A stretch of 64,000 nucleotides of DNA from an uncultured Gammaproteobacteria bacterium (GCA_964599625.1 CAZRGC010000003.1:97759-161758), one strand, 5' to 3'; counted from the stretch's first letter, positions 27,732-43,261 are shown. Numbers and translations are program-made. The notes: generated by a model not told the origin, from the sequence alone.

Positions 27732-28511
27732 ATGTCTGGCCCCGATTCCCCTTTTCACTCAGACTCAAGTGTTTTCGAAACAAAAAACTCTCATATAGAC
27801 ACCCCTTTAGAGACAGTAATAAAAGCGGATTATTGGGCCAATTCACATTATCCTCAAATGTGGATAGCAAAACGCCTGGTTACAACGCACGCAGCTTTGG
27901 AACAGGTGCTTGCGGGAAAGTTGTTGTGGAGTGATTTTTCCACATCACAACTCCCCGACGTTTTTATTGAACCCCATATGAAAGAAAAGGCAAATAAAGC
28001 ACATGCTGCATATGGGCAACCTGCAATAATGGATCGTGATCTTAACAACCTGTGGAGGTCTGATGTAAGTGATGTATCAAATACACTTTGGAATTTGCTG
28101 CCCGACAAGGGAGACCCGTTGGAAATCCAAGACGTAACAATTGCCAAAGCCTTGAAAGACCCAAAAAATAAACAGTTTTTTGGGTCGTTGTTGGGTGTAT
28201 TGGCGGCAGAGAAGTCGGCCTTGGAAAGCCAGGAGTGCCTGGAGATATCAAAAGACCTGCGTGAGTCATTAAGAGACCTTCATCATAAAAAATTTGACCG
28301 CGGGTATAGTTTTTCTTTAAAGGAACAAGCTGACTTAAGGGTCAGATGGAACGCTATTTCAGACCGTCTCGAGTCTGTTTTGCAGCGGGAGCTTTCAAAG
28401 GCCAATCAAAAAGCAAAACTGATGCTTAACGATAGCCAATTGGAGTTTCTAACGCATCAAATCCATGTTGGTTCGAGAGTTGTGGCCAGTACGCCGATGG
28501 AGTCTTTTTGA
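27732..28511 (+). CDS. hypothetical protein inserted between rpsG and fusA
   Basis: 259-aa ORF, predicted helical, with no motif recognised. Sampled 60-nt lines are 50-57% G+C, above the flanking genes. Confidence 0.55.
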   Translation: MSGPDSPFHSDSSVFETKNSHIDTPLETVIKADYWANSHYPQMWIAKRLVTTHAALEQVLAGKLLWSDFSTSQLPDVFIEPHMKEKANKAHAAYGQPAIMDRDLNNLWRSDVSDVSNTLWNLLPDKGDPLEIQDVTIAKALKDPKNKQFFGSLLGVLAAEKSALESQECLEISKDLRESLRDLHHKKFDRGYSFSLKEQADLRVRWNAISDRLESVLQRELSKANQKAKLMLNDSQLEFLTHQIHVGSRVVASTPMESF

Positions 28512-30805: not shown

Positions 30806-31600
30806 ATGAATTTCTTTAAGAAAGTTGCTTCTAGTGTTTATTCCCCGGAGTTCTATTCCCAAATACCCAAAATGACACTTGGTTCTGTGTTGGGTTATTT
30901 TTTCTTGCTGCTTCTAGTGGTCGAACTTGTCATGTTTGGCAAAAGCATGCCGGAGTTTATGTTTGGTTTCTCAGGAAAGATAAAATCTACAATAAGCGAG
31001 GTTATCGACACTTATCCCAGTAATTTGGTTTTGACAATCAAAGATGGAGCGCTTTCCACCAATGTTAAGGAGCCTTACTACCTTATGGATAAAACCAACA
31101 ACAAGTTCGCGGTTATAGACACAAAAACTGCATACTCTGCCGATCAATTTAAAAAGTACAACGTACCGGTCTGGGTTACCAAAGATACTGTTTTTTACCA
31201 AGACAGCGACCAAATCAAGAGCAATAGTTTTGTAGAGATGAAAGATATGGTGGTAAACAAAGAACTTGTAAACAGTTTTTCTGCCAAAATATCTCCCTGG
31301 ATTCCATATTTTGGCCCTGTTGTTATGATTTTTGCACTCGTAACTCTTTACGCCCTCCAATCTTTCAGACTGGTTTATGGGTTTTTCCTTGCACTTTTAA
31401 TTTTGCTGGTTGCCAAAATGACCAAGAAAAGTCTGACGTATAAAGAATCTTACAAAGTAGGGATATTTGCCATGACACTACCCTTTATTTTAGAAGCGCT
31501 TAATACCTATATCGGTTGGAAGGCTTTTCCGTTCACTTTTACTATAATTGCACTTATTGTTGTTGGCGTAAATTTTGCAGGATCCAACTCGAAGAAGTAG
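30806..31600 (+). CDS. DUF1189-like polytopic membrane protein
   Basis: 264 aa. The N-terminus MNFFKKVASSVYSPEFYSQIPKMTLGSVLGYFFLLLLV follows the DUF1189 pattern. C-terminal TM helices are present. Confidence 0.45.
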   Translation: MNFFKKVASSVYSPEFYSQIPKMTLGSVLGYFFLLLLVVELVMFGKSMPEFMFGFSGKIKSTISEVIDTYPSNLVLTIKDGALSTNVKEPYYLMDKTNNKFAVIDTKTAYSADQFKKYNVPVWVTKDTVFYQDSDQIKSNSFVEMKDMVVNKELVNSFSAKISPWIPYFGPVVMIFALVTLYALQSFRLVYGFFLALLILLVAKMTKKSLTYKESYKVGIFAMTLPFILEALNTYIGWKAFPFTFTIIALIVVGVNFAGSNSKK

Positions 31601-31610
31601 AATATTCCTA

Positions 31611-31640
31611 TTGACAGCTTTATTTAGGCTCAATTATAAT
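31611..31640 (+). promoter_or_regulatory. sigma70-like promoter upstream of tuf
   Basis: TTGACA (31611-31616), an 18-nt spacer, then TATAAT (31635-31640). Confidence 0.55.
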
Positions 31641-31683
31641 TGCTCTAGGTAATTAGATTTCTTAGAGAAATCATAATAACTTT

Positions 31684-31710
31684 GGAGGCTAAATATGCCT
31701 CTTGTTTTTT
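31684..31710 (+). promoter_or_regulatory. short hairpin + U-rich tract in the tuf leader
   Basis: GAGGC (31685-31689) pairs with GCCTC (31697-31701), loop TAAATAT. TTGTTTTTT follows. Confidence 0.3.
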
Positions 31711-32985: not shown

Positions 32986-33291
32986 ATGGCAATTAGACTA
33001 AGAGTCAAACTTAAAAGTTATGACCACAGGGTCTTAGATGAAGCAGCCGGTAAAATTATAGATACCGCGCTATCATCTGGTGCAAAAATTGTCGGTCCTA
33101 TTCCTCTCCCCACAAACCGCAGCGTAATGGCAATCAAAGAATCACCATTTACGGACAAAGACGCTCAGGAACACTTTGAAGTTCTAACCCACAAAAGACT
33201 TATTGATATTTTGGACCCAACCCCCAGAACTGTTGATTCTTTGGGCAACCTCGACCTCCCTGCGGGAGTTTCTATCGAGATTAAGATGTAA
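32986..33291 (+). CDS. rpsJ: 30S ribosomal protein S10
   Basis: 101 aa: [35 protein letters not shown]. Confidence 0.97.
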
Positions 33292-33318
33292 GGCCTCTTG
33301 TTCGACCAAACCCCATAG

Positions 33319-33346
33319 TTGGAATAACTGAACTACCTGATATAAT
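33319..33346 (+). promoter_or_regulatory. island promoter P-A (preceded by a CCCATAGTT box)
   Basis: CCCCATAGTTGGAA, with -35 TTGGAA (33319-33324), a 16-nt spacer, then TGA-TATAAT (33341-33346). Confidence 0.55.
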
Positions 33347-33398
33347 GCCAATGTCTGAATTAAGTTAGATCTTTGTACAATCAAAAAGGAATTTGACT

Positions 33399-33701
33399 AT
33401 GGATCCGATAAGAGTAGTTGTTGCAGTGGATGGCGACAAGGCAAAGTTCCACACCACTTTTCCGTTGGACGTGTATTTACCAGGACGACAAAAAAGGTCT
33501 GAAAAAGGCCAGGAGCTGGTAAACAAGTTGAAAGAGGTCAAGGGTATTAAAAACGAAGAGTTGGATATCTGGATCTACGAATATGAAATTTCGGCCAATA
33601 AGCTACACGCCTTTAAATGGAAGGATGAGGTCGCACCTGCTGTAGTTGAGGTTCTCAAGACCTTTTACAATCTCGGCACAGTCGAAATTGTATACGAATA
33701 A
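33399..33701 (+). CDS. island ORF A, orphan protein (100 aa); weak Nfu_N-like pattern
   Basis: ATG at 33399 with AAAGGAA 7 nt upstream. No family recognised. The EKGQELVNKLKEVKGI...WKDEVAPAVVEVL pattern is shared with ORF D. Confidence 0.6.
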   Translation: MDPIRVVVAVDGDKAKFHTTFPLDVYLPGRQKRSEKGQELVNKLKEVKGIKNEELDIWIYEYEISANKLHAFKWKDEVAPAVVEVLKTFYNLGTVEIVYE

Positions 33702-33735
33702 TACCCTGTCCGAATATCTGTTGTGTTAGTTTTTG

Positions 33736-33771
33736 CTCCGCTTTGTGGAAATTTCCCGGGCGGAGTTTTTT
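33736..33771 (+). terminator. island terminator, junction copy alpha
   Basis: CTCCGC (33736-33741) pairs with GCGGAG (33760-33765). The inner palindrome is GGAAATTTCC. T6 follows at 33766-33771. Confidence 0.8.
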
Positions 33772-33793
33772 GTGGCCAACATTAGTCCCATAG

Positions 33794-33823
33794 TTGGATT
33801 TATGGTGGTTAATCTGCTAGAAT
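33794..33823 (+). promoter_or_regulatory. island promoter P-B
   Basis: CCCATAGTTGGAT, with -35 TTGGAT (33794-33799), an 18-nt spacer, then TGC-TAGAAT (33818-33823). Confidence 0.55.
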
Positions 33824-33866
33824 CCGCTAGCACGTTGAATTATTACAGAACGTCCTTGGAGGAACA

Positions 33867-35015
33867 ATGATTCTTGGACTGAAATTAACTGTCGAAAACG
33901 ACGATATTGTCGACATTGGCGGAGATTTGTACGTCAAAAACTCCAAAGCCATGAAGCGTCTTCACAGGGAGCTTCGCTACCTGGGATACCAAATCGACAA
34001 CTTGCGGCACGATAAATACCGCTTGGACAAGGGAGCCACCCCGCGCGAAATGGAAAAAGGTGGTTGGTCGCTTTGGTTTGCCAAGTTACCCAATATCAGA
34101 CGTGGTGTCTGTGGAAGCTGTGGAGCAACCATTTCCACTCTCGGCATTCAGTCACACGGCCACAAATGCGAGAGGTGCGGCGAAGTGACCTACTGGGAAA
34201 TGGTGGAAGGATCAGTAATCCGGTTCGTCTTTTTGCAAAAAGAGGGCCGTGGAATGTGGGATCCCGAGCTTAAGATGAAAGTGCACCATTGGGATACGCG
34301 TGAAGGGCTTTTATATCTTTACCCGGAAGCCTTGGAAGGTGGCCTTTCGACTGTGACGGGAGATACAGCACGGCAGTACTTGGGCAATAACCACGAAAAG
34401 TGGAATGTAGTCACGATCGATGGCCAAAAAATTATCGTGATCAAGTACCCCAAGCAGTGGCGGCGCGATACGGCTGTTATCGAACCTTATGAGATTTACG
34501 GTCATCAGTGGAATCACAAGATCGTCAAAATCTACAAAGGTAAACATTACAGTGACTGGGACCGGCTCCCTGTTCCCGAGACATTTTCTATCTACGAAAC
34601 CTGGCACTGGGACAAGCTTGTGGCTTCGCCAACATTGCACAGGCGTGTATTGCAGGCTGTTCACAACACCGATGACAAGGGTTGGCACTACCAAGACGGT
34701 CGTCCCTGGTTTAGAGAAGGAAGCTGGAAGGGCATGGCAAAGTTTATTCGCCATTTTACAGCCCTTGATGCTGATGCCTTTGACCGAGCCTGGCCACGTT
34801 TCAGAAACGACGGTCCCGGCGGGATCGACGACTTGGCACACTTCTGTCACCCCAAAGCCATCACTCGTGATGAGCCAAACATAGGTAATGTTCTTGTTGC
34901 CATGGGGAAACGCATGGAAAATAAGTCTCTCACGCGCGATGAGATCGAAGCAGCCAAACGCGGCTTGAGCGATCCATTGACGGGTGATTTTTTACGTTCC
35001 CTGCGTAAGCGTTAG
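33867..35015 (+). CDS. island ORF B, orphan Trp-rich protein with a CxxC..CxxC zinc ribbon (382 aa)
   Basis: GGAGG lies 4 nt upstream of the ATG. It contains CGSCGATISTLGIQSHGHKCERCG and many Trp residues (WHW, WDxxW). No family recognised. Confidence 0.7.
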   Translation: MILGLKLTVENDDIVDIGGDLYVKNSKAMKRLHRELRYLGYQIDNLRHDKYRLDKGATPREMEKGGWSLWFAKLPNIRRGVCGSCGATISTLGIQSHGHKCERCGEVTYWEMVEGSVIRFVFLQKEGRGMWDPELKMKVHHWDTREGLLYLYPEALEGGLSTVTGDTARQYLGNNHEKWNVVTIDGQKIIVIKYPKQWRRDTAVIEPYEIYGHQWNHKIVKIYKGKHYSDWDRLPVPETFSIYETWHWDKLVASPTLHRRVLQAVHNTDDKGWHYQDGRPWFREGSWKGMAKFIRHFTALDADAFDRAWPRFRNDGPGGIDDLAHFCHPKAITRDEPNIGNVLVAMGKRMENKSLTRDEIEAAKRGLSDPLTGDFLRSLRKR

Positions 35016-35028
35016 TTTTGGAGTCTCA

Positions 35029-35064
35029 CTCCGCCTTGTGGAAATTTCCCGGGCGGAGTTTTTT
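35029..35064 (+). terminator. island terminator, junction copy beta
   Basis: CTCCGC (35029-35034) pairs with GCGGAG (35053-35058). T6 follows at 35059-35064. It is near-identical to copies alpha and gamma. Confidence 0.8.
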
Positions 35065-35087
35065 GTGGCTAAAATAAGCCCCATAGT

Positions 35088-35116
35088 TTGACATAACTTT
35101 GAACCTTTGATATATT
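35088..35116 (+). promoter_or_regulatory. island promoter P-C
   Basis: CCCATAGTTTGACA, with -35 TTGACA (35088-35093), a 17-nt spacer, then TGA-TATATT (35111-35116). Confidence 0.65.
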
Positions 35117-35156
35117 CACAAGGTTTATTTGCACATTATGGTTAAAAGGAGAGACT

Positions 35157-35660
35157 ATGGGAATTACCCATGCAGAGGGTGTTGACTTGCAAGAGTGGGC
35201 GAATGCTCACAAACCGGATGATGACTTGATTTACAGGGATGGTTATTGGCATCAAATCATCTTTGTCCGGGATCGCTTGCCACAGCCGCTTTTTGGCTCA
35301 TACGAAGAGTACAAAGCCAATCCGGTACGCGTGGTGGGTGATCATACAAGCAAATCAGTACTCCTTCCTGTTTACAGTATCAAATTTGCTCCTCTCGAAA
35401 TTCGGATGCGTTACAACTTTTACGACTGGAAAGTGAGTGTGGTATCTCAAGTTCCCATCAGGTCGAACTTTTACCCGTTCCTTTTTAGAGATGAAGCTGT
35501 GCACCCGGTTTATTTTGAGGGTTTTACCAATGACTGGGTTTTTGGCTCCTACTCTGCCGACAACACCAAATTTTCTGTTGAAATTAGCAACGAACACATG
35601 TTGTTCGCTTTCATGGCTATTTTAGCGGGTGATTTGGGCTTGGGAGGCAATAAGAAGTAG
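35157..35660 (+). CDS. island ORF C, orphan aromatic-rich protein (167 aa)
   Basis: AAGGAGAG lies 3 nt upstream of the ATG. No TM segment or signal peptide, and no family recognised. Confidence 0.65.
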   Translation: MGITHAEGVDLQEWANAHKPDDDLIYRDGYWHQIIFVRDRLPQPLFGSYEEYKANPVRVVGDHTSKSVLLPVYSIKFAPLEIRMRYNFYDWKVSVVSQVPIRSNFYPFLFRDEAVHPVYFEGFTNDWVFGSYSADNTKFSVEISNEHMLFAFMAILAGDLGLGGNKK

Positions 35661-35672
35661 TTTGGAGCTCAA

Positions 35673-35708
35673 CTCCGCTTTGTGGAAATTTCCCGAGCGG
35701 AGTTTTTT
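35673..35708 (+). terminator. island terminator, junction copy gamma
   Basis: CTCCGC (35673-35678) pairs with GCGGAG (35697-35702). T6 follows at 35703-35708. Confidence 0.8.
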
Positions 35709-35731
35709 GTGGCAAAAACAAGTCCCATAGT

Positions 35732-35761
35732 TTGACAAAGCCTCGAATATGGTTTTATAAT
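35732..35761 (+). promoter_or_regulatory. island promoter P-D
   Basis: CCCATAGTTTGACA, with -35 TTGACA (35732-35737), an 18-nt spacer, then TATAAT (35756-35761). Confidence 0.65.
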
Positions 35762-35805
35762 CATCTGTTGTCAGAAATTTGTACTTTACAAAAAATAGCT
35801 TGGCA

Positions 35806-35846
35806 GGCAGCTTTTTACCCGTAAAATTTATGGTTGAAAAGCTGCC
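35806..35846 (+). promoter_or_regulatory. 10-bp perfect stem in the ~155-nt 5' UTR of ORF D
   Basis: GGCAGCTTTT (35806-35815) pairs with AAAAGCTGCC (35837-35846), with a 21-nt loop. Confidence 0.5.
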
Positions 35847-35922
35847 TACGGATGATAGTGAGGCGTATGGGAGCACTCCTAAAACAAAAACCAAATAAAA
35901 ATTAGAAAGTAACAGGAGCAAA

Positions 35923-36300
35923 ATGTCTCAATCTCAAAAGCGCGTTTCCGAACGCGAGGTACCCGAAGTCAATCCCAACAAGAGGTTTTTCCCAGACTTT
36001 CCTCTTTGCAACGACACGGCTACCCACACAAGCTATTCATACAGGAACAAGAAGGATGTCGGTGAAAAGGGTGTCGCCTTGGTAGAGGCTGTTTTGGCAA
36101 TCCACGGCGTGATCGATCTGACGATCTCAAAGAATGAACTTCGGGTCGTCAAACAACCTGCCCACACCTGGGAAGAGGTTACACCTTTGATCCACAATGC
36201 TTTCAGGCATGTTTACGGCGACGATATCAAATTTATCGGAGAAAACAAGGCTATTTTGGCCTACAGACGTCTCCGAGTTGCCATGAACGTGGCTAAGTAA
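35923..36300 (+). CDS. island ORF D, orphan protein (125 aa); weak Nfu_N-like pattern
   Basis: AGGAG lies 4 nt upstream of the ATG. EKGVALVEAVLAIHGVIDLTISKNELRVVKQPAHTWEEVTPLI resembles the Nfu/NifU N-terminal domain text and ORF A. Confidence 0.65.
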   Translation: MSQSQKRVSEREVPEVNPNKRFFPDFPLCNDTATHTSYSYRNKKDVGEKGVALVEAVLAIHGVIDLTISKNELRVVKQPAHTWEEVTPLIHNAFRHVYGDDIKFIGENKAILAYRRLRVAMNVAK

Positions 36301-36315
36301 CATCAATGGCCTTCC

Positions 36316-36347
36316 GGCCCAAATCTCACAAGGTTTGGGCCTTTTTT
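36316..36347 (+). terminator. strong rho-independent terminator closing the island
   Basis: GGCCCAAATCT (36316-36326) pairs with AGGTTTGGGCC (36331-36341), loop CACA. T6 follows, and the TTTTTTGTGG tail is shared with the junction repeats. Confidence 0.85.
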
Positions 36348-36364
36348 GTGGGTTTGACCCGTGC

Positions 36365-36393
36365 TTGCGGCGTTTTGGTATATCTGATATAAT
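36365..36393 (+). promoter_or_regulatory. promoter re-starting transcription toward rplC
   Basis: TTGCGG (36365-36370), a 17-nt spacer, then TGA-TATAAT (36388-36393). Confidence 0.45.
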
Positions 36394-36465
36394 TCCGAAT
36401 AACAAATATGGTGGTTACAATGTTTGCTCAACCACGCTAAGTTAGTCTTTGGCAGATGCCTCACT

Positions 36466-36489
36466 GGCGCCTTCCGAAGGCGCTTTTTT
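36466..36489 (+). terminator. terminator-like hairpin inside the rplC leader (attenuator or end of a ~90-nt small RNA)
   Basis: GCGCCTT (36467-36473) pairs with AAGGCGC (36477-36483). T6 follows at 36484-36489, 50 nt upstream of the rplC ATG. Confidence 0.5.
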
Positions 36490-36539
36490 GTTTAATGTCC
36501 TTCGACTCGCAAGAGCTCGCTCTAGGATCCAAAACAAAT

Positions 36540-37265
36540 ATGATCAACACAATTTTAGGTTCCAAGCTGAAAAACAGTCAAACCTTCTTGCAAGGGTTTA
36601 GGATTCCCGTGACCAAAATCATGGCAGGCCCCTGTACAGTCACTCAAATTAAGAAAATGGACAAAGATGGATATTGGGCAGTTCAGATCGGATTCGGTAC
36701 CAGACGCACCAAAGTTACTTCAAAAGCACTCCAAGGACACCTCAAACTAACAGCAAAAGAAAACCTTTTCCCCAGACATCTTAGAGAAATAAGATTAACA
36801 GAAGAACCCGAGTTTAAAGTAGGCGATACAATAAATGTCGCCGATATTTTTGCTGCAGGGGACGTTGTTGCTGTCACTGGGGTTTCCAAAGGCAAGGGAT
36901 TTGCCGGCGTTGTCAAAAGGCACGGTTTTCGTGGAGGACCCAGAACTCATGGACAATCTGACCGCGAACGCGCACCCGGATCAATCGGACAAACAACAAC
37001 ACCAGGCAGGGTCTACAGAGGCAAAAGAATGGCAGGAAGAATGGGTGGCGAACAAATAACCATCAAAAATTTGCATGTGGTATCAGTGAATGCAGACACC
37101 GGCGAGGTGGAAATTTCAGGACAGGTTCCGGGATCCGTTGGAACACTTCTTTCAATCAAAAAGATCAAAGCAGGCAGTCTTAAAGATTTGGAACACGAAA
37201 CAGTTGCTCAGGTAGTAGAAGGAGAAGGTGCTAAGGTTGCAGGTTCGGCACCAAAATCAGAATAA
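36540..37265 (+). CDS. rplC: 50S ribosomal protein L3
   Basis: MINTILGSKL..PVTKIMAGPCTVTQIK and GKGFAGVVKRHGFRGGPRTHGQS. The track start at 36456 would read through the leader hairpin, so ATG 36540 is preferred. Confidence 0.93.
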   Translation: MINTILGSKLKNSQTFLQGFRIPVTKIMAGPCTVTQIKKMDKDGYWAVQIGFGTRRTKVTSKALQGHLKLTAKENLFPRHLREIRLTEEPEFKVGDTINVADIFAAGDVVAVTGVSKGKGFAGVVKRHGFRGGPRTHGQSDRERAPGSIGQTTTPGRVYRGKRMAGRMGGEQITIKNLHVVSVNADTGEVEISGQVPGSVGTLLSIKKIKAGSLKDLEHETVAQVVEGEGAKVAGSAPKSE

Positions 37266-39025: not shown

Positions 39026-39307
39026 ATGGCAAGAAGTTCAAAAAAGGGTCCGTTTGTAGACCCGATACTAGTCAAAAAGTTGGAAAAAGGAATGGGCACA
39101 AAAGAAAGCCCTATCAAAACCTGGTCCAGAAGATGCCAAATTTCACCGGAATTTGTTGGTAAATATTTTCAGGTTCATAACGGTCGTGTATTTATCGATG
39201 TATTTGTAACAGAAGACATGGTCGGCCATAGGCTTGGTGAGTTTTCACCTACAAGAACATTCAGAGGACACGGAGAGATAGTCAAAAGAACGATGGACAA
39301 GACGTAA
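39026..39307 (+). CDS. rpsS: 30S ribosomal protein S19
   Basis: [11 protein letters not shown] and [16 protein letters not shown]. Confidence 0.96.
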
Positions 39308-39341
39308 ATGTCTTCGTCTGGCGACGTAAAAAAGTAAAACT

Positions 39342-39803
39342 ATGGAAAAAACATACACATCAACTCAAAAATATCTGATTATGAGTCCTAGAAAAATAAG
39401 ACTTGTAACTGAACTTGTAAAAAAGATGAAACCGCTTGATGCGATTGAGAAGTTGCCCTTTGTTCAAAAAAGAGCAGGAGAGGTTGTTGCAAAAGTAATA
39501 AAAAGCGCTTTAGCAAACGCTAGAGTTCAGGGTGCGACCGATACAGATTTGGTTTTTAAAGAGATTCAAGTTGGCGAAGGACCCAGACTCAAAAGAGGTA
39601 GGGCTGCAAGCCGCGGAAGATGGCATCCGTTTAAACACAGAATGTCACACATTAGAGTGGTTTTGGTATCAGGTAAACAAGTAAAGACAGTGGAAGCCGA
39701 AGTGACCAAGAAAGTAGAAGATAAAGAAGTCAAAGCAGAAGTAGTGAAGAAAGAGACGCCGGCAAAAAAAGCCGCAGCAAAGAAAAATGGGACAAAAGGT
39801 TAA
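39342..39803 (+). CDS. rplV: 50S ribosomal protein L22 with Lys/Glu/Val-rich C-terminal extension
   Basis: SPRKIRLVTELV and GEGPRLKRGRAASRGRWHPFKHRMSHIRVVL, followed by a ~45-aa KKVEDKEVKAEVVKKETPAKKAAAKK tail. Confidence 0.92.
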   Translation: MEKTYTSTQKYLIMSPRKIRLVTELVKKMKPLDAIEKLPFVQKRAGEVVAKVIKSALANARVQGATDTDLVFKEIQVGEGPRLKRGRAASRGRWHPFKHRMSHIRVVLVSGKQVKTVEAEVTKKVEDKEVKAEVVKKETPAKKAAAKKNGTKG

Positions 39804-40443
39804 TCCAATCGGTATAAGAATCGGAAGCTACCTTCCTTGGAAATCAAGATGGTTTGCCGACGGTGGTGTTCTGAAGGACTTTTTGGTGGAAGATATCAAA
39901 ATCAGAAAAGGACTCATGGAACGTCTCAAGCTTGCCGGAGTCACAACTGTTGAAATCGAAAGACTTCCCAAAAGCATGGTGATTTCGATAACAGTCAGTA
40001 GGCCAGGAGTTGTAATTGGGCGAGGCGGAACAGGAATCGAAGACGTCAAAAAATTCGTAATGAGCATAATTAACGAGGTTAGAAAGAAAAAAGTTAAAGA
40101 TCTTAAAATCGACATTAGAATCAATGAAGTCAAAAATGCAGAACTTTCGGCACATCTTGTTGCAGGAAGGATTGTGGGAGAGTTGGAACGTAGAATTCCC
40201 CACAGACGTGCAGTTACAAAAGCTCTCGAAAGAGTAATGGCCTCGGGGGCCTTGGGAGCCAAAGTTGTTTTGGCAGGGCGCATAAACGGAGCAGAAATCA
40301 GCAGAGTTGAAAAGTTCCATGTTGGATCTGTTCCCACTCAAACACTTAGAGAAACTGTCGATTATGCACAGACACCGGCATCGCTTAAAAGAGGTTATGT
40401 CGGGGTAAAAGTTTGGATACACAAAAAACAGGAAGGTAATTAA
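39787..40443 (+). CDS. rpsC: 30S ribosomal protein S3
   Basis: MGQKVNPIGIRIG and a KH domain. It overlaps the rplV 3' end. Confidence 0.96.
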   Translation: MGQKVNPIGIRIGSYLPWKSRWFADGGVLKDFLVEDIKIRKGLMERLKLAGVTTVEIERLPKSMVISITVSRPGVVIGRGGTGIEDVKKFVMSIINEVRKKKVKDLKIDIRINEVKNAELSAHLVAGRIVGELERRIPHRRAVTKALERVMASGALGAKVVLAGRINGAEISRVEKFHVGSVPTQTLRETVDYAQTPASLKRGYVGVKVWIHKKQEGN

Positions 40444-40448
40444 CGATT

Positions 40449-40859
40449 ATGATGCAACCAAAGCGAAGAAAGTTTGTAAAAGAGTTTAGGGGAAGACGAC
40501 GCGGTCTCGCTACCCGCGGTGCCAGTATGGCTTTTGGAGAATTTGCACTGAAGGCTCAGGAAGTTTCTTGGATAACATCTGCTCAGATTGAGGCAGCTAG
40601 AAGAAGCATAACCCACAATCTAAAAAAAGGTGGACGTGTTTGGATTAGAATTTTTCCGGACAAGCCCATTACCAGTAGGCCAGCAGGAAAAAGAATGGGT
40701 GGAGGAAAGGGAGATATTTCGACATATGTTGCAGTAGTTAAACCCGGAATGATACTTTTTGAAGTTGCAGGGGCAGCGGAAGATGTGGTTAGGACTGCAT
40801 TCAAAAGAGCATCCGCCAAGCTCCCGATAGATGTCAAGATAGTTACAAGAGAAGACTAA
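40449..40859 (+). CDS. rplP: 50S ribosomal protein L16
   Basis: MQPKRRKF..RGRRRG..FGEFALKA and RMGGGKG. Confidence 0.96.
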   Translation: MMQPKRRKFVKEFRGRRRGLATRGASMAFGEFALKAQEVSWITSAQIEAARRSITHNLKKGGRVWIRIFPDKPITSRPAGKRMGGGKGDISTYVAVVKPGMILFEVAGAAEDVVRTAFKRASAKLPIDVKIVTRED

Positions 40860-40863
40860 GACT

Positions 40864-41091
40864 ATGAAAAGAAAAGAATTTACAGATTTAAAAACAAAAC
40901 AGATAAAAGACCTTTTAAAAATGGTTTCTGCCAAAAGTCTTGAGGCGGGCAAGAAACAAATGGAAGTGTCCGGAGGAAAAGAAAAGAATCTAAGATCGGT
41001 CAAAAATATCCGAAAAGATATTGCCAGAATTTTGACGTTAATCAAAGAAAAGCAGATAATCGAGACTTTGGAGAAAGGAGTGAATAAATAA
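40864..41091 (+). CDS. rpmC: 50S ribosomal protein L29
   Basis: 75 aa, helical, in the conserved position between rplP and rpsQ. Confidence 0.85.
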   Translation: MKRKEFTDLKTKQIKDLLKMVSAKSLEAGKKQMEVSGGKEKNLRSVKNIRKDIARILTLIKEKQIIETLEKGVNK

Positions 41092-41094
41092 TTT

Positions 41095-41340
41095 ATGAAA
41101 ATTTTTAGAGGAAAAGTAATCGGTAAAAAGATGACCAATACTGCGACTGTGGCTGTAGAGCGTGTTATTGTTCACCCTCTTTATCAAAAAAGATTCAGAC
41201 GCGATACAAAATATCAAGTCCACGACGAGATGGATACAAAAGTTGGTGATACTGTCAAATTTGCAGCCAGTAAACCCTATTCAAAGACAAAGAAATGGAA
41301 AATTTTGGAGATAGTTAAGGAGAAAGGGGGAGCCAAATAA
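41095..41340 (+). CDS. rpsQ: 30S ribosomal protein S17
   Basis: GKVIGKKMTNTATVAVERVIVHPLYQKRFRRDTKYQVHD. Confidence 0.95.
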   Translation: MKIFRGKVIGKKMTNTATVAVERVIVHPLYQKRFRRDTKYQVHDEMDTKVGDTVKFAASKPYSKTKKWKILEIVKEKGGAK

Positions 41341-41705
41341 TGGTGCAGTTAAGAACAATGTTGGTTCCTGCAGACAACAGCGGAGCCAAAAGACTCCAGA
41401 TAATTGGAGTTCCTGGAAGAGTTGGTAAAATTGCCACTTTGGGAGATGTTGTTCTTTGTGTAGTCAAAGGCGCGGACCCAACAGGTGTGGTGGCTGATCA
41501 CGAAAAAGTGAAAGTGCTTATCGTACGCACCAAAAAAGAAGTAGGCAGACCAGATGGAAGCTATATCAGATTTGACGATAACGCAGGGGTGGTAATTGAT
41601 AAACAAGGGTTGCCAAGGGGTACCAGAATATTGGGACCGGTTGCCCGCGAGGTTAAAGAGGCAGGGTACAACAAAATTGCATCACTCGCCCGTGAGGTTA
41701 TATAA
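41340..41705 (+). CDS. rplN: 50S ribosomal protein L14
   Basis: MVQLRTMLVPADNSGAK...IRFDDNAGV. Confidence 0.96.
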   Translation: MVQLRTMLVPADNSGAKRLQIIGVPGRVGKIATLGDVVLCVVKGADPTGVVADHEKVKVLIVRTKKEVGRPDGSYIRFDDNAGVVIDKQGLPRGTRILGPVAREVKEAGYNKIASLAREVI

Positions 41706-41720
41706 GCAAACAAAACAAAT

Positions 41721-42035
41721 ATGCTCAAAATTAAACTTGGAGACACAGTCAAAATAACAGCAGGCAAAGACAAAGGCCGCGAAGGGAAGGTTGAAAAAAT
41801 CTACCCAGAGGACTCAAAGGTTGTTGTGCCAGGCGTAAACCTGTACAAAAAACACGTTAAAGGTTTTGGTGACGTTAAGGGTGGAATCTACGAAATTCCC
41901 AGAGCTTTGGGATTTGGAAAAATTGCACTTATATGTCCAAAATGCAAAAAAATAACCAGAGTTGGTTTCAAATTTGCGGGTAAGGAAAAAGTGAGAGTTT
42001 GCCGCAAGTGCGGAAAAGAAATCGACGGTAAATAA
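41721..42035 (+). CDS. rplX: 50S ribosomal protein L24 (Cys4 variant)
   Basis: KOW motif GDTVKITAGKDKGREGKV. The C-terminal part carries CPKC..x18..CRKC. Confidence 0.92.
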   Translation: MLKIKLGDTVKITAGKDKGREGKVEKIYPEDSKVVVPGVNLYKKHVKGFGDVKGGIYEIPRALGFGKIALICPKCKKITRVGFKFAGKEKVRVCRKCGKEIDGK

Positions 42036-42853: not shown

Positions 42854-43261
42854 ATGAAAAAAGCAGAAACAATCAAACACGGAACAGTTAACTACGGAGT
42901 AGGAGATTTTCTTATAAAAATCAAAAACTGTTCTATGGCCAAAAACAAAAGCCTGGTAACCAGATATACAAAACACAATATGGCTATCGCAGAAACTCTC
43001 AAGAAACTTGGCTATTTGGACGAAGTCAAAAAAGACGGACTCAACCTCCATCTTTCTCTGACATTCAAAAACAAAAGACCTGTAGTTATGGACCTCAAAC
43101 TTGTTTCCAAACCAGGACTTAGGGTTTACAAGGGAGTAGATGAAATTGAAAGCAAAAAAGGACCTTCCCTTCTTTTGATTTCTACACCTTTGGGAGTAAT
43201 TTCTTCCAAAGAAGCCATCAAAAAGAGAGTTGGCGGAGAAGTAATAGCAGAAATTTGGTAA
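42854..43261 (+). CDS. rpsH: 30S ribosomal protein S8
   Basis: 135 aa in operon position, with a C-terminal GGEVIAEIW. Confidence 0.92.
   Translation: MKKAETIKHGTVNYGVGDFLIKIKNCSMAKNKSLVTRYTKHNMAIAETLKKLGYLDEVKKDGLNLHLSLTFKNKRPVVMDLKLVSKPGLRVYKGVDEIESKKGPSLLLISTPLGVISSKEAIKKRVGGEVIAEIW

Follow-up and report, generated by a model that had tools for sequence, protein, structure and literature searches.

A probable hypervariable slot of phage-like terminator/promoter cassettes between the ribosomal genes rpsJ and rplC in a Woesebacteria-like genome

INTRODUCTION

In the hyperplastic region of T4-type phages, a repeated composite terminator/promoter motif, the promoter-early stem-loop (PeSL), lies upstream of ORFans and is where replacements between near-identical phage genomes occur (PMC2839356; Arbiol et al., 2010; PMC4122927; Comeau et al., 2014). 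Transfer hotspots flanked by core genes concentrate gene turnover with no recognizable mobile-element genes and with a recombination signal in the flanks (PMC5635113; Oliveira, Touchon, Cury, and Rocha, 2017), and morons are independent units with their own promoter and terminator, a deviating composition, and variable presence (PMC3594210; Cumby et al., 2012). Here, we studied the interval between rpsJ (S10) and rplC (L3) in a 64-kb stretch of contig CAZRGC010000003.1 (97759 to 161758) of assembly GCA_964599625.1, deposited as an uncultured Gammaproteobacteria bacterium. This whole stretch is called the window below, and coordinates are counted from its first nucleotide. The two genes are separated in the window by 3248 nt (ca. 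3.25 kb), which hold four plus-strand open reading frames (ORF1 to ORF4) of 100, 382, 167, and 125 amino acids (aa). We refer to the clade as Woesebacteria-like, given that the closest named relatives of its S10 and ORF2 are "Candidatus Woesebacteria."

A first-pass annotation had read the four genes as one recent foreign insertion that split an inseparable gene pair and insulated itself inside the operon. Instead, the comparison with relatives makes it probable that the interval represents a single allele of a hypervariable slot for accessory genes, built from PeSL-like cassettes that would be exchanged by recombination. The S10-L3 link belongs to the syntenic ribosomal block used for binning and tree placement of Patescibacteria, and here it is a strain-variable slot of up to ca. 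3 kb whose repeats disrupt short-read assemblies. In a full-text literature search, no description of an insertion site between rpsJ and rplC in Patescibacteria turned up.

RESULTS

Both conserved flanks of the slot were confirmed with Pfam (rpsJ, 32986 to 33291, plus strand, Ribosomal_S10, E value of 2.7e-29; rplC, 36540 to 37265, plus strand, Ribosomal_L3), and the end of rpsJ, the start of rplC, and the number, strand, and lengths of the ORFs were as first annotated. The rplC start at 36540 (MINTILG) was kept in all relatives, and an upstream ATG at 36456 fell within a conserved leader (see below). We compared this junction among 14 loci with S10 at least 90% identical, where the gap between the two genes measured 205, 210, 781, 781, 889, 1232, and 1272 nt in the shorter half and 1565, 1921, 2329, 2385, 2634, 3220, and 3248 nt in the longer one. 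The slot was empty in L111 and L113 only. L112 and L115 carried one 111-aa Nfu_N-like gene; L114, a 90-aa gene and the Nfu_N-like gene; L105, His_Phos_1; L109, His_Phos_1 and a 96-aa gene; L106 and L108, a helix-turn-helix (HTH) regulator, His_Phos_1, a 75-aa gene, an epimerase, and an 89-aa gene; L107, an epimerase, a 329-aa membrane protein, and an 87-aa gene; and L110, 23S_rRNA_IVP, a Trp-repressor-like gene, and a 127-aa gene. An ORF2 homologue was found in L102/L103, between a 62-aa transmembrane (TM) protein (called on L103) and an 80-aa TM protein followed by a 165-aa gene, and in L007, preceded by a 139-aa gene and a 61-aa TM protein and followed by an 80-aa TM protein. L090 held ORF1 and a 144-aa gene, and the window held ORF1 to ORF4. 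Altogether, there were at least nine distinct gene contents or architectures, unrelated or mosaic, with modules common to several loci in a mosaic pattern. PHROGs recognized only the HTH regulator among nine other slot proteins. The site is thus a hotspot with many different gene sets and not the place of a one-off insertion, as had been proposed.

As a control, we used 80 other bacteria with S10 ca. 60% identical, among the matches listed, in which the median gap was 25 nt and 79 of the 80 gaps were ≤115 nt. The proposed inseparability of rpsJ and rplC matches their usual adjacency outside the clade, but within it the distance runs from 205 to 3248 nt. Among the control loci listed, a single outlier was seen, L011 (8297 to 9727), an unrelated metagenome-assembled genome labeled Gammaproteobacteria with S10 63% identical, in which a gap of 1.4 kb contains a 219-aa ORF.

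The content of the slot also differed between near-identical strains. L090 had an S10 identical to that of the window, and identity in its flanks was 99.4% along the 4.4 kb upstream and 98.2% along the 7 kb downstream. It retained ORF1 (100% identical) and the first of the junction repeats described below, while one unrelated 144-aa gene replaced ORF2, ORF3, and ORF4; to the right of this gene, L090 had a last terminator of a similar kind and then the rplC promoter and leader also present in the window. On the left, the swap broke at ca. 33801, within repeat copy 1, and similarity resumed at 36307; the right breakpoint was not at a repeat copy but within the tract comprising the last terminator, the leader, and rplC, whose first ca. 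170 nt were part of the diverged tract. Mismatches were concentrated at both edges, with 64 of the 131 downstream differences within the first 400 nt past the island (36307 to 36706) and 10 of the 25 upstream ones within the last 400 nt (33435 to 33834), while most other 400-nt bins had 0 or 1. Such clustering is what a recombination tract acquired from a more distant relative would leave behind and points to homologous recombination as the probable mechanism of exchange. Genes for RecA, RecX, and RuvX lie in the window. In agreement with the first-pass annotation, a scan of 20 non-ribosomal ORFs there yielded neither an integrase nor a transposase. Farther along the ribosomal operon, divergence between the two strains was patchy (39107 to 39906, 40707 to 41906, and 43107 to 43261), bins with 4 to 22 differences alternating with bins of none, which suggests a mosaic of recombination tracts.

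All four ORFs had good Shine-Dalgarno sequences. Consensus sigma70-like matches preceded ORF1 (33399 to 33701; TTGGAA-16-TATAAT, 10/12), ORF3 (35157 to 35660; 11/12), and ORF4 (35923 to 36300; 12/12), but the candidate for ORF2 (33867 to 35015), TTGGAT-18-TAGAAT, scored under the threshold of the scan. The promoter-like site of ORF1 (33312 to 33346, plus strand) carries motif CCCATAGTTGGA at 33312 to 33323. A hairpin followed by T6 was present after each of the four ORFs, as previously noted, but the first three are copies of one 87-nt plus-strand repeat, 75 to 85% identical to each other. Copy 1 (33724 to 33810) has its hairpin at 33736 to 33765, followed by T6 and then CCCATAGTTGGA; copy 2, the reference copy (35017 to 35103), has it at 35029 to 35058, with the promoter TTGACA-17-TATATT reaching 35116; and copy 3 (35661 to 35747) has it at 35673 to 35702, with TTGACA-18-TATAAT reaching 35761. 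The folding energies of these hairpins are -18.7 to -21.2 kcal/mol (z = -2.4 to -3.2). A 41-nt core within the repeat was absent from the rest of the window (0 copies expected by chance). Motif CCCATAGTTKGA ends each copy and supplies the -35 box of the next cassette, and a fourth copy of this motif lies directly past rpsJ, ahead of ORF1. Along similar lines, CCCATAGTTGGA had four exact copies, all within the island (0.49 expected at ≤1 mismatch). The terminator of ORF4 (36316 to 36341) differs from the repeat; as a feature, this last slot terminator, with an 11-bp stem and T6, extends over 36316 to 36347 on the plus strand. Its counterpart in L090 was similar but diverged, and the right edge of the swapped tract starts here.

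Generic scans gave 18 promoter sites (11.2 ± 3.2 in shuffles) and 11 terminators (8.3 ± 3.6), neither enriched alone; the pattern is significant because of the repeats and not because of these scans. Folding revealed no hairpin between rpsJ and ORF1, so that transcription from tuf-rpsJ probably continues into ORF1 as well. The description of each ORF as its own transcription unit holds, then, for the promoter-gene-terminator layout but probably not for the isolation of ORF1. The untranslated region of ORF4 was unusually long (160 nt, 35762 to 35922) and contained a 10-bp inverted repeat (35806 to 35815 and 35837 to 35846) and a second promoter-like site (35800 to 35827).

We aligned the 260 nt that precede rplC in 14 loci, with the empty sites L111 and L113 among them. 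A promoter (CTTGCR, a 17-nt spacer, and GATATAAT) followed by a leader of ca. 120 nt was conserved in all aligned loci, both empty sites included (205 to 210 nt). In the window, this promoter is at 36364 to 36393 on the plus strand (CTTGCG, the 17-nt spacer, and TGaTATAAT), with the -35 box TTGCGG at 36365 to 36370 and the extended -10 box at 36385 to 36393; the -35 box first assigned to rplC, a TTGACC further upstream, is not the conserved one. The leader (36394 to 36539, plus strand) comprises hairpin P1 (GTGGTT/AACCAC, 36411 to 36416 and 36430 to 36435), a GTCTTYG box (GTCTTTG in the window), hairpin P2 (GCGCC-loop-GGCGC, 36466 to 36484, terminator-like in the window), and a TTGTTTAATG box. 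It is more conserved than the surrounding coding DNA, and RNAalifold retrieved both P1 and P2, with only one compensatory pair. Given that the promoter and leader are present at the empty sites, they are a feature of the clade and are not derived from the island, which appears to sit between two transcription units, at a pre-existing operon boundary. Thus, rplC did not need to be restarted by a newly brought promoter, and what had been taken as self-insulation inside an operon is a long-standing junction of two transcription units in this clade. A 16-nt likeness between the -10 regions of ORF1 and rplC was considered as a target-site duplication and rejected, since the extended -10 consensus explains it.

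We regard the leader as a candidate new ribosomal-protein leader or attenuator. As in the leader of the Escherichia coli S10 operon (L4-mediated attenuation), a promoter-proximal, terminator-like hairpin precedes rplC-rplD-rplW. However, it is located upstream of rplC, unlike that of E. coli, which is upstream of rpsJ; P2 has no T-run in L111 and L112; and a cmscan search against Rfam (E value of ≤1) returned no family, only two chance-level small RNA hits. A scan of metagenome contigs with the leader found nothing. The same layout of promoter plus leader hairpin was seen just upstream of tuf, within 31611 to 31702, in the form of a perfect TTGACA-18-TATAAT promoter and, after it, a terminator-like hairpin (31684 to 31702).

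The four island genes also stood out in composition. Their G+C content at third codon positions (GC3) was 0.495, 0.561, 0.500, and 0.563 for ORF1 to ORF4, respectively (z = 3.3 to 5.1), compared with 0.369 ± 0.038 (maximum, 0.468) for the 64 other genes of the window. Slot genes of several relatives were atypical as well, such as the ORF2 homologue of L007 (0.50, versus 0.29 in its flanks) and the 144-aa gene of L090 (0.61 versus 0.37). The part of the first-pass annotation that described an acquired module is therefore borne out in that the genes are accessory, foreign in GC3, and different between near-identical strains, but not in that they came as a single recent insertion.

Searches of the four island proteins with Pfam, PHROGs, NCBIfam, and PADLOC gave nothing above cutoff. 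Nevertheless, the statement that they belong to no recognizable family was too strong. ORF2, a zinc-ribbon protein of an uncharacterized family, had homologues in 102 clusters (35 to 69% identity, full length), all named ones from Patescibacteria, with invariant residues in the zinc ribbon (C82, C85, H97, and C101), QDG (276 to 278), and GPG (316 to 318). Elsewhere, these homologues were singletons amid housekeeping genes, and two were on IMG/VR contigs (L100 and L101) next to genes hitting phage polynucleotide kinase, ParB-like, and Cas4-like families. ORF3, from a large family that is likewise uncharacterized, had 787 representative homologues (E value of ≤1e-3), with relatives in 68 IMG/VR loci, many on contigs of 100 to 670 kb; in two of them (L118, 4191 to 7979, and L120, 4155 to 8018), the homologue lies between the genes for the large and medium subunits of phage topoisomerase II. 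A search of the ORF3 profile against the PDB found nothing. The structure models of both ORF2 and ORF3 were confident and matched no solved fold, leaving two sizeable families, both shared with uncultivated phages, whose structures are predicted and have no solved counterpart.

Some surroundings of ORF2 homologues were of interest in their own right. In L185 (6181 to 7869), a homologue with 55% identity adjoins genes for a large serine recombinase of 562 aa and for an Omega-repressor-like protein, in what looks like a mobile island. The 327-kb viral contig L100 (3414 to 13701) has its own repeated intergenic motifs containing promoters (TTCTGAA...CTTGACG...), one copy of which begins in the final 12 nt of the gene for the ORF2 homologue. 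In two other lineages (L007, 5806 to 7402; L102, 5613 to 7008; and L103, 1343 to 1531), the homologue belongs to a three-gene module, with conserved small membrane proteins of 61 to 62 aa and 80 aa on either side; the window has neither of the two small genes.

ORF1 and ORF4, both small and divergent, likely share an Nfu_N-like fold, although scores are below the cutoff for Pfam membership. ORF4 matched Nfu_N (PF08712) with an E value of 2.4e-5 and 24.7 bits, under the 27-bit gathering cutoff, and resembled the slot proteins of L112, L114, and L115. ORF1 had no Pfam hit, and a word-seeded search of 5.8 billion clusters retrieved only itself, but it resembled the 111-aa slot protein of L112 (E value of 4e-7). 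This protein is the only link between the two, which gave no alignment in a direct BLASTP comparison. A joint profile of the Nfu_N-like proteins (A4) matched 1pqx best in the PDB (E value of 0.0017), together with 2k1h and, more weakly, NFU1 N-domains. The same profile retrieved no viral relatives from IMG/VR.

Two further non-ribosomal genes break the str cluster of the window. A 259-aa ORF without a Pfam hit (27732 to 28511) lies between rpsG and fusA, where relatives have different ORFs (119 to 137 aa) or none, and a gene for a DUF1189 protein (30806 to 31600) lies between fusA and tuf, a gene that L105 and L106 do not have.

DISCUSSION

We think that these data are best explained by a slot, of which the window would carry one allele, at the point where the tuf-rpsJ transcription unit gives way to the ribosomal operon led by rplC. 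In the window, the slot would be filled with four self-contained cassettes, each with a predicted sigma70-like promoter carrying CCCATAGTTKGA and a predicted intrinsic terminator, joined by the 87-nt composite terminator/promoter repeat. Strains would exchange its content by RecA-type homologous recombination, with no integrase, using the conserved flanks and the junction repeats as homology, in a way similar to PeSL-mediated shuffling in T4-type phages and to turnover in core-gene-flanked transfer hotspots. ORF2 and ORF3 would come from a gene pool shared with phages, while ORF1 and ORF4 would belong to an Nfu_N-like family of small proteins that recurs at the slot. A role of the cargo in phage-host conflict can be suggested with low confidence, on the grounds of the shared phage gene pool, the turnover at strain level, and the autonomous expression signals only. 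Going further, the 87-nt junctions might be mobile regulatory cassettes through which single genes pass between the bacterium and its phages, either by recombination of the PeSL kind or as mini-circles; the cargo, including ORF2 and ORF3 with their novel folds, would be an arsenal that is anti-phage or targets translation. We consider this extension rather doubtful; if true, there would be a dedicated chromosomal "hyperplastic region" beside the ribosomal operon, with cargo expressed from a privileged site.

Several observations weigh against a slot of exchanged, phage-related cassettes. The 87-nt repeat was not found in IMG/VR viral contigs or in Joint Genome Institute (JGI) metagenomes, and thus these scans yielded no donor with the same junctions. 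No match to ORF2 or ORF3 was found by tblastn in 50,697 GenBank phage records, and therefore the link to phages rests on IMG/VR calls and on gene neighbors. Every promoter and terminator is a prediction, that of ORF2 being weak by consensus. A single alternative allele was recovered for this species; an exact look-up of L3 returned L184 and no further alleles. Not all slot genes are foreign, since His_Phos_1 in L105 has a host-like GC3. Finally, ORF2 occupies the same site in three lineages (64 to 69% aa identity, compared with 72 to 74% for L3) and may have resided there for a long time instead of being recent cargo.

Given the repeats, we considered whether the island might be an assembly chimera or a collapsed or expanded repeat. 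Short-read unitigs carrying ORF2 do stop within the 87-nt repeats, and the ORF2/ORF3 junction, inside repeat copy 2, is the sole one without an independent spanning contig. However, exact-sequence look-ups showed that L095 and L098, from other samples, cross rpsJ-ORF1-ORF2 at 98 to 99.9% identity and that L184, from an independent sample, crosses ORF3-ORF4-rplC-rplD-rplW, which excludes misassembly at both outer boundaries, and ORF2 was found between rpsJ and rplC in two other lineages. An artefact is thus extremely improbable, and the interruption of unitigs inside the repeats indicates that these are real and disrupt assemblies. The single recent insertion of a moron-like element into an inseparable gene pair, bringing its own insulation and the rplC promoter, would account for the foreign GC3, for the promoter-gene-terminator layout, for the lack of integrase or transposase genes among the ORFs scanned, and for the adjacency of rpsJ and rplC outside the clade. 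We find it unlikely, as it is largely refuted by the presence of the rplC promoter and leader in the empty sites and all other relatives, and it has to face at least nine contents at this site and the occurrence of ORF2 there in three lineages.

The opposite possibility is an ancestral, vertically inherited set of lineage-specific genes, in which ORF1, ORF4, and perhaps ORF2 would be resident ribosome-associated or translation factors. Nfu_N-like genes do recur, immediately ahead of the rplC promoter in L112, L114, and L115 and as two genes in the window, with no viral relatives of the family in IMG/VR, and ORF2 is at the site in the window, L007, and L102 with a divergence near that of L3. 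But ORF2 to ORF4 are absent from a strain 98 to 99% identical, L111 and L113 are empty, ORF2 homologues occupy unrelated positions in other Patescibacteria and also occur on viral contigs, and the GC3 of ORF1, ORF4, and the L112 gene exceeds that of every background gene tested, all of which makes vertical inheritance of the set improbable. Tandem single-gene cassettes separated by imperfect-palindrome repeats also recall an integron-like array, with the hairpin repeats as the sites at which a site-specific recombinase, its gene lying elsewhere, would capture and excise the cassettes; on the left, the swap breaks within a junction repeat, and one ORF2 homologue adjoins a large serine recombinase. 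Integron cassettes are mostly promoterless and are expressed from a common Pc promoter, while here each has its own promoter-like site, and the hairpins carry T-runs in the fashion of intrinsic terminators. In addition, the 20 non-ribosomal ORFs scanned in the window contained no recombinase (IntI-type integrases included), and the right diverged tract runs ca. 400 nt into the rplC leader and gene, which fits homologous exchange, so that we judge an integron-like array very unlikely.

A hypervariable slot exchanged by recombination, which we favor, has its closest mechanistic analogue in the PeSLs. Similarly to these, the 87-nt repeat combines a stem-loop with a TTGACA-type -35 box, it stands before small genes of the ORFan type, in a variable region bounded by conserved core genes, and one breakpoint of a replacement between near-identical genomes is in a copy (copy 1), although the other is outside the repeats. 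Unlike them, it is located in a chromosome of Patescibacteria, with tuf, rpsJ, and rplC as flanks, and not in a T4-type phage; there are only three to four copies in one slot within 64 kb, with an activity predicted from sequence; and it has no sequence similarity to phage PeSLs, the likeness being functional only. Regarding transfer hotspots, the same core-gene pair flanks at least nine architectures in 14 loci, the slot has no recognizable mobile-element genes, and mismatches cluster within 400 nt on both sides of the swap, as expected from recombination. What departs from a typical hotspot is that the flanking pair is adjacent in nearly all bacteria. Formally, hotspots also show a statistical excess of transferred genes over the remaining intervals of the same pan-genome, and the comparison here covered this interval in 14 loci. 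The moron-like layout that had been proposed is upheld at the sequence level, with promoter-gene-terminator units, a deviating composition, and a content that differs between strains; in contrast to morons, there are no phage genes in the flanks or among the 20 other ORFs scanned, the neighbors being tuf, rpsJ, and rplC.

Thus, the slot combines known kinds, namely, a hotspot and PeSL- or moron-like cassettes, and what is unusual is their placement between rpsJ and rplC. Its analysis also exposed an undescribed conserved leader of rplC. In organisms whose mechanisms of gene flow are poorly known, this locus is a candidate case, on a bacterial chromosome, of the terminator/promoter cassette shuffling so far described for T4-type phages.

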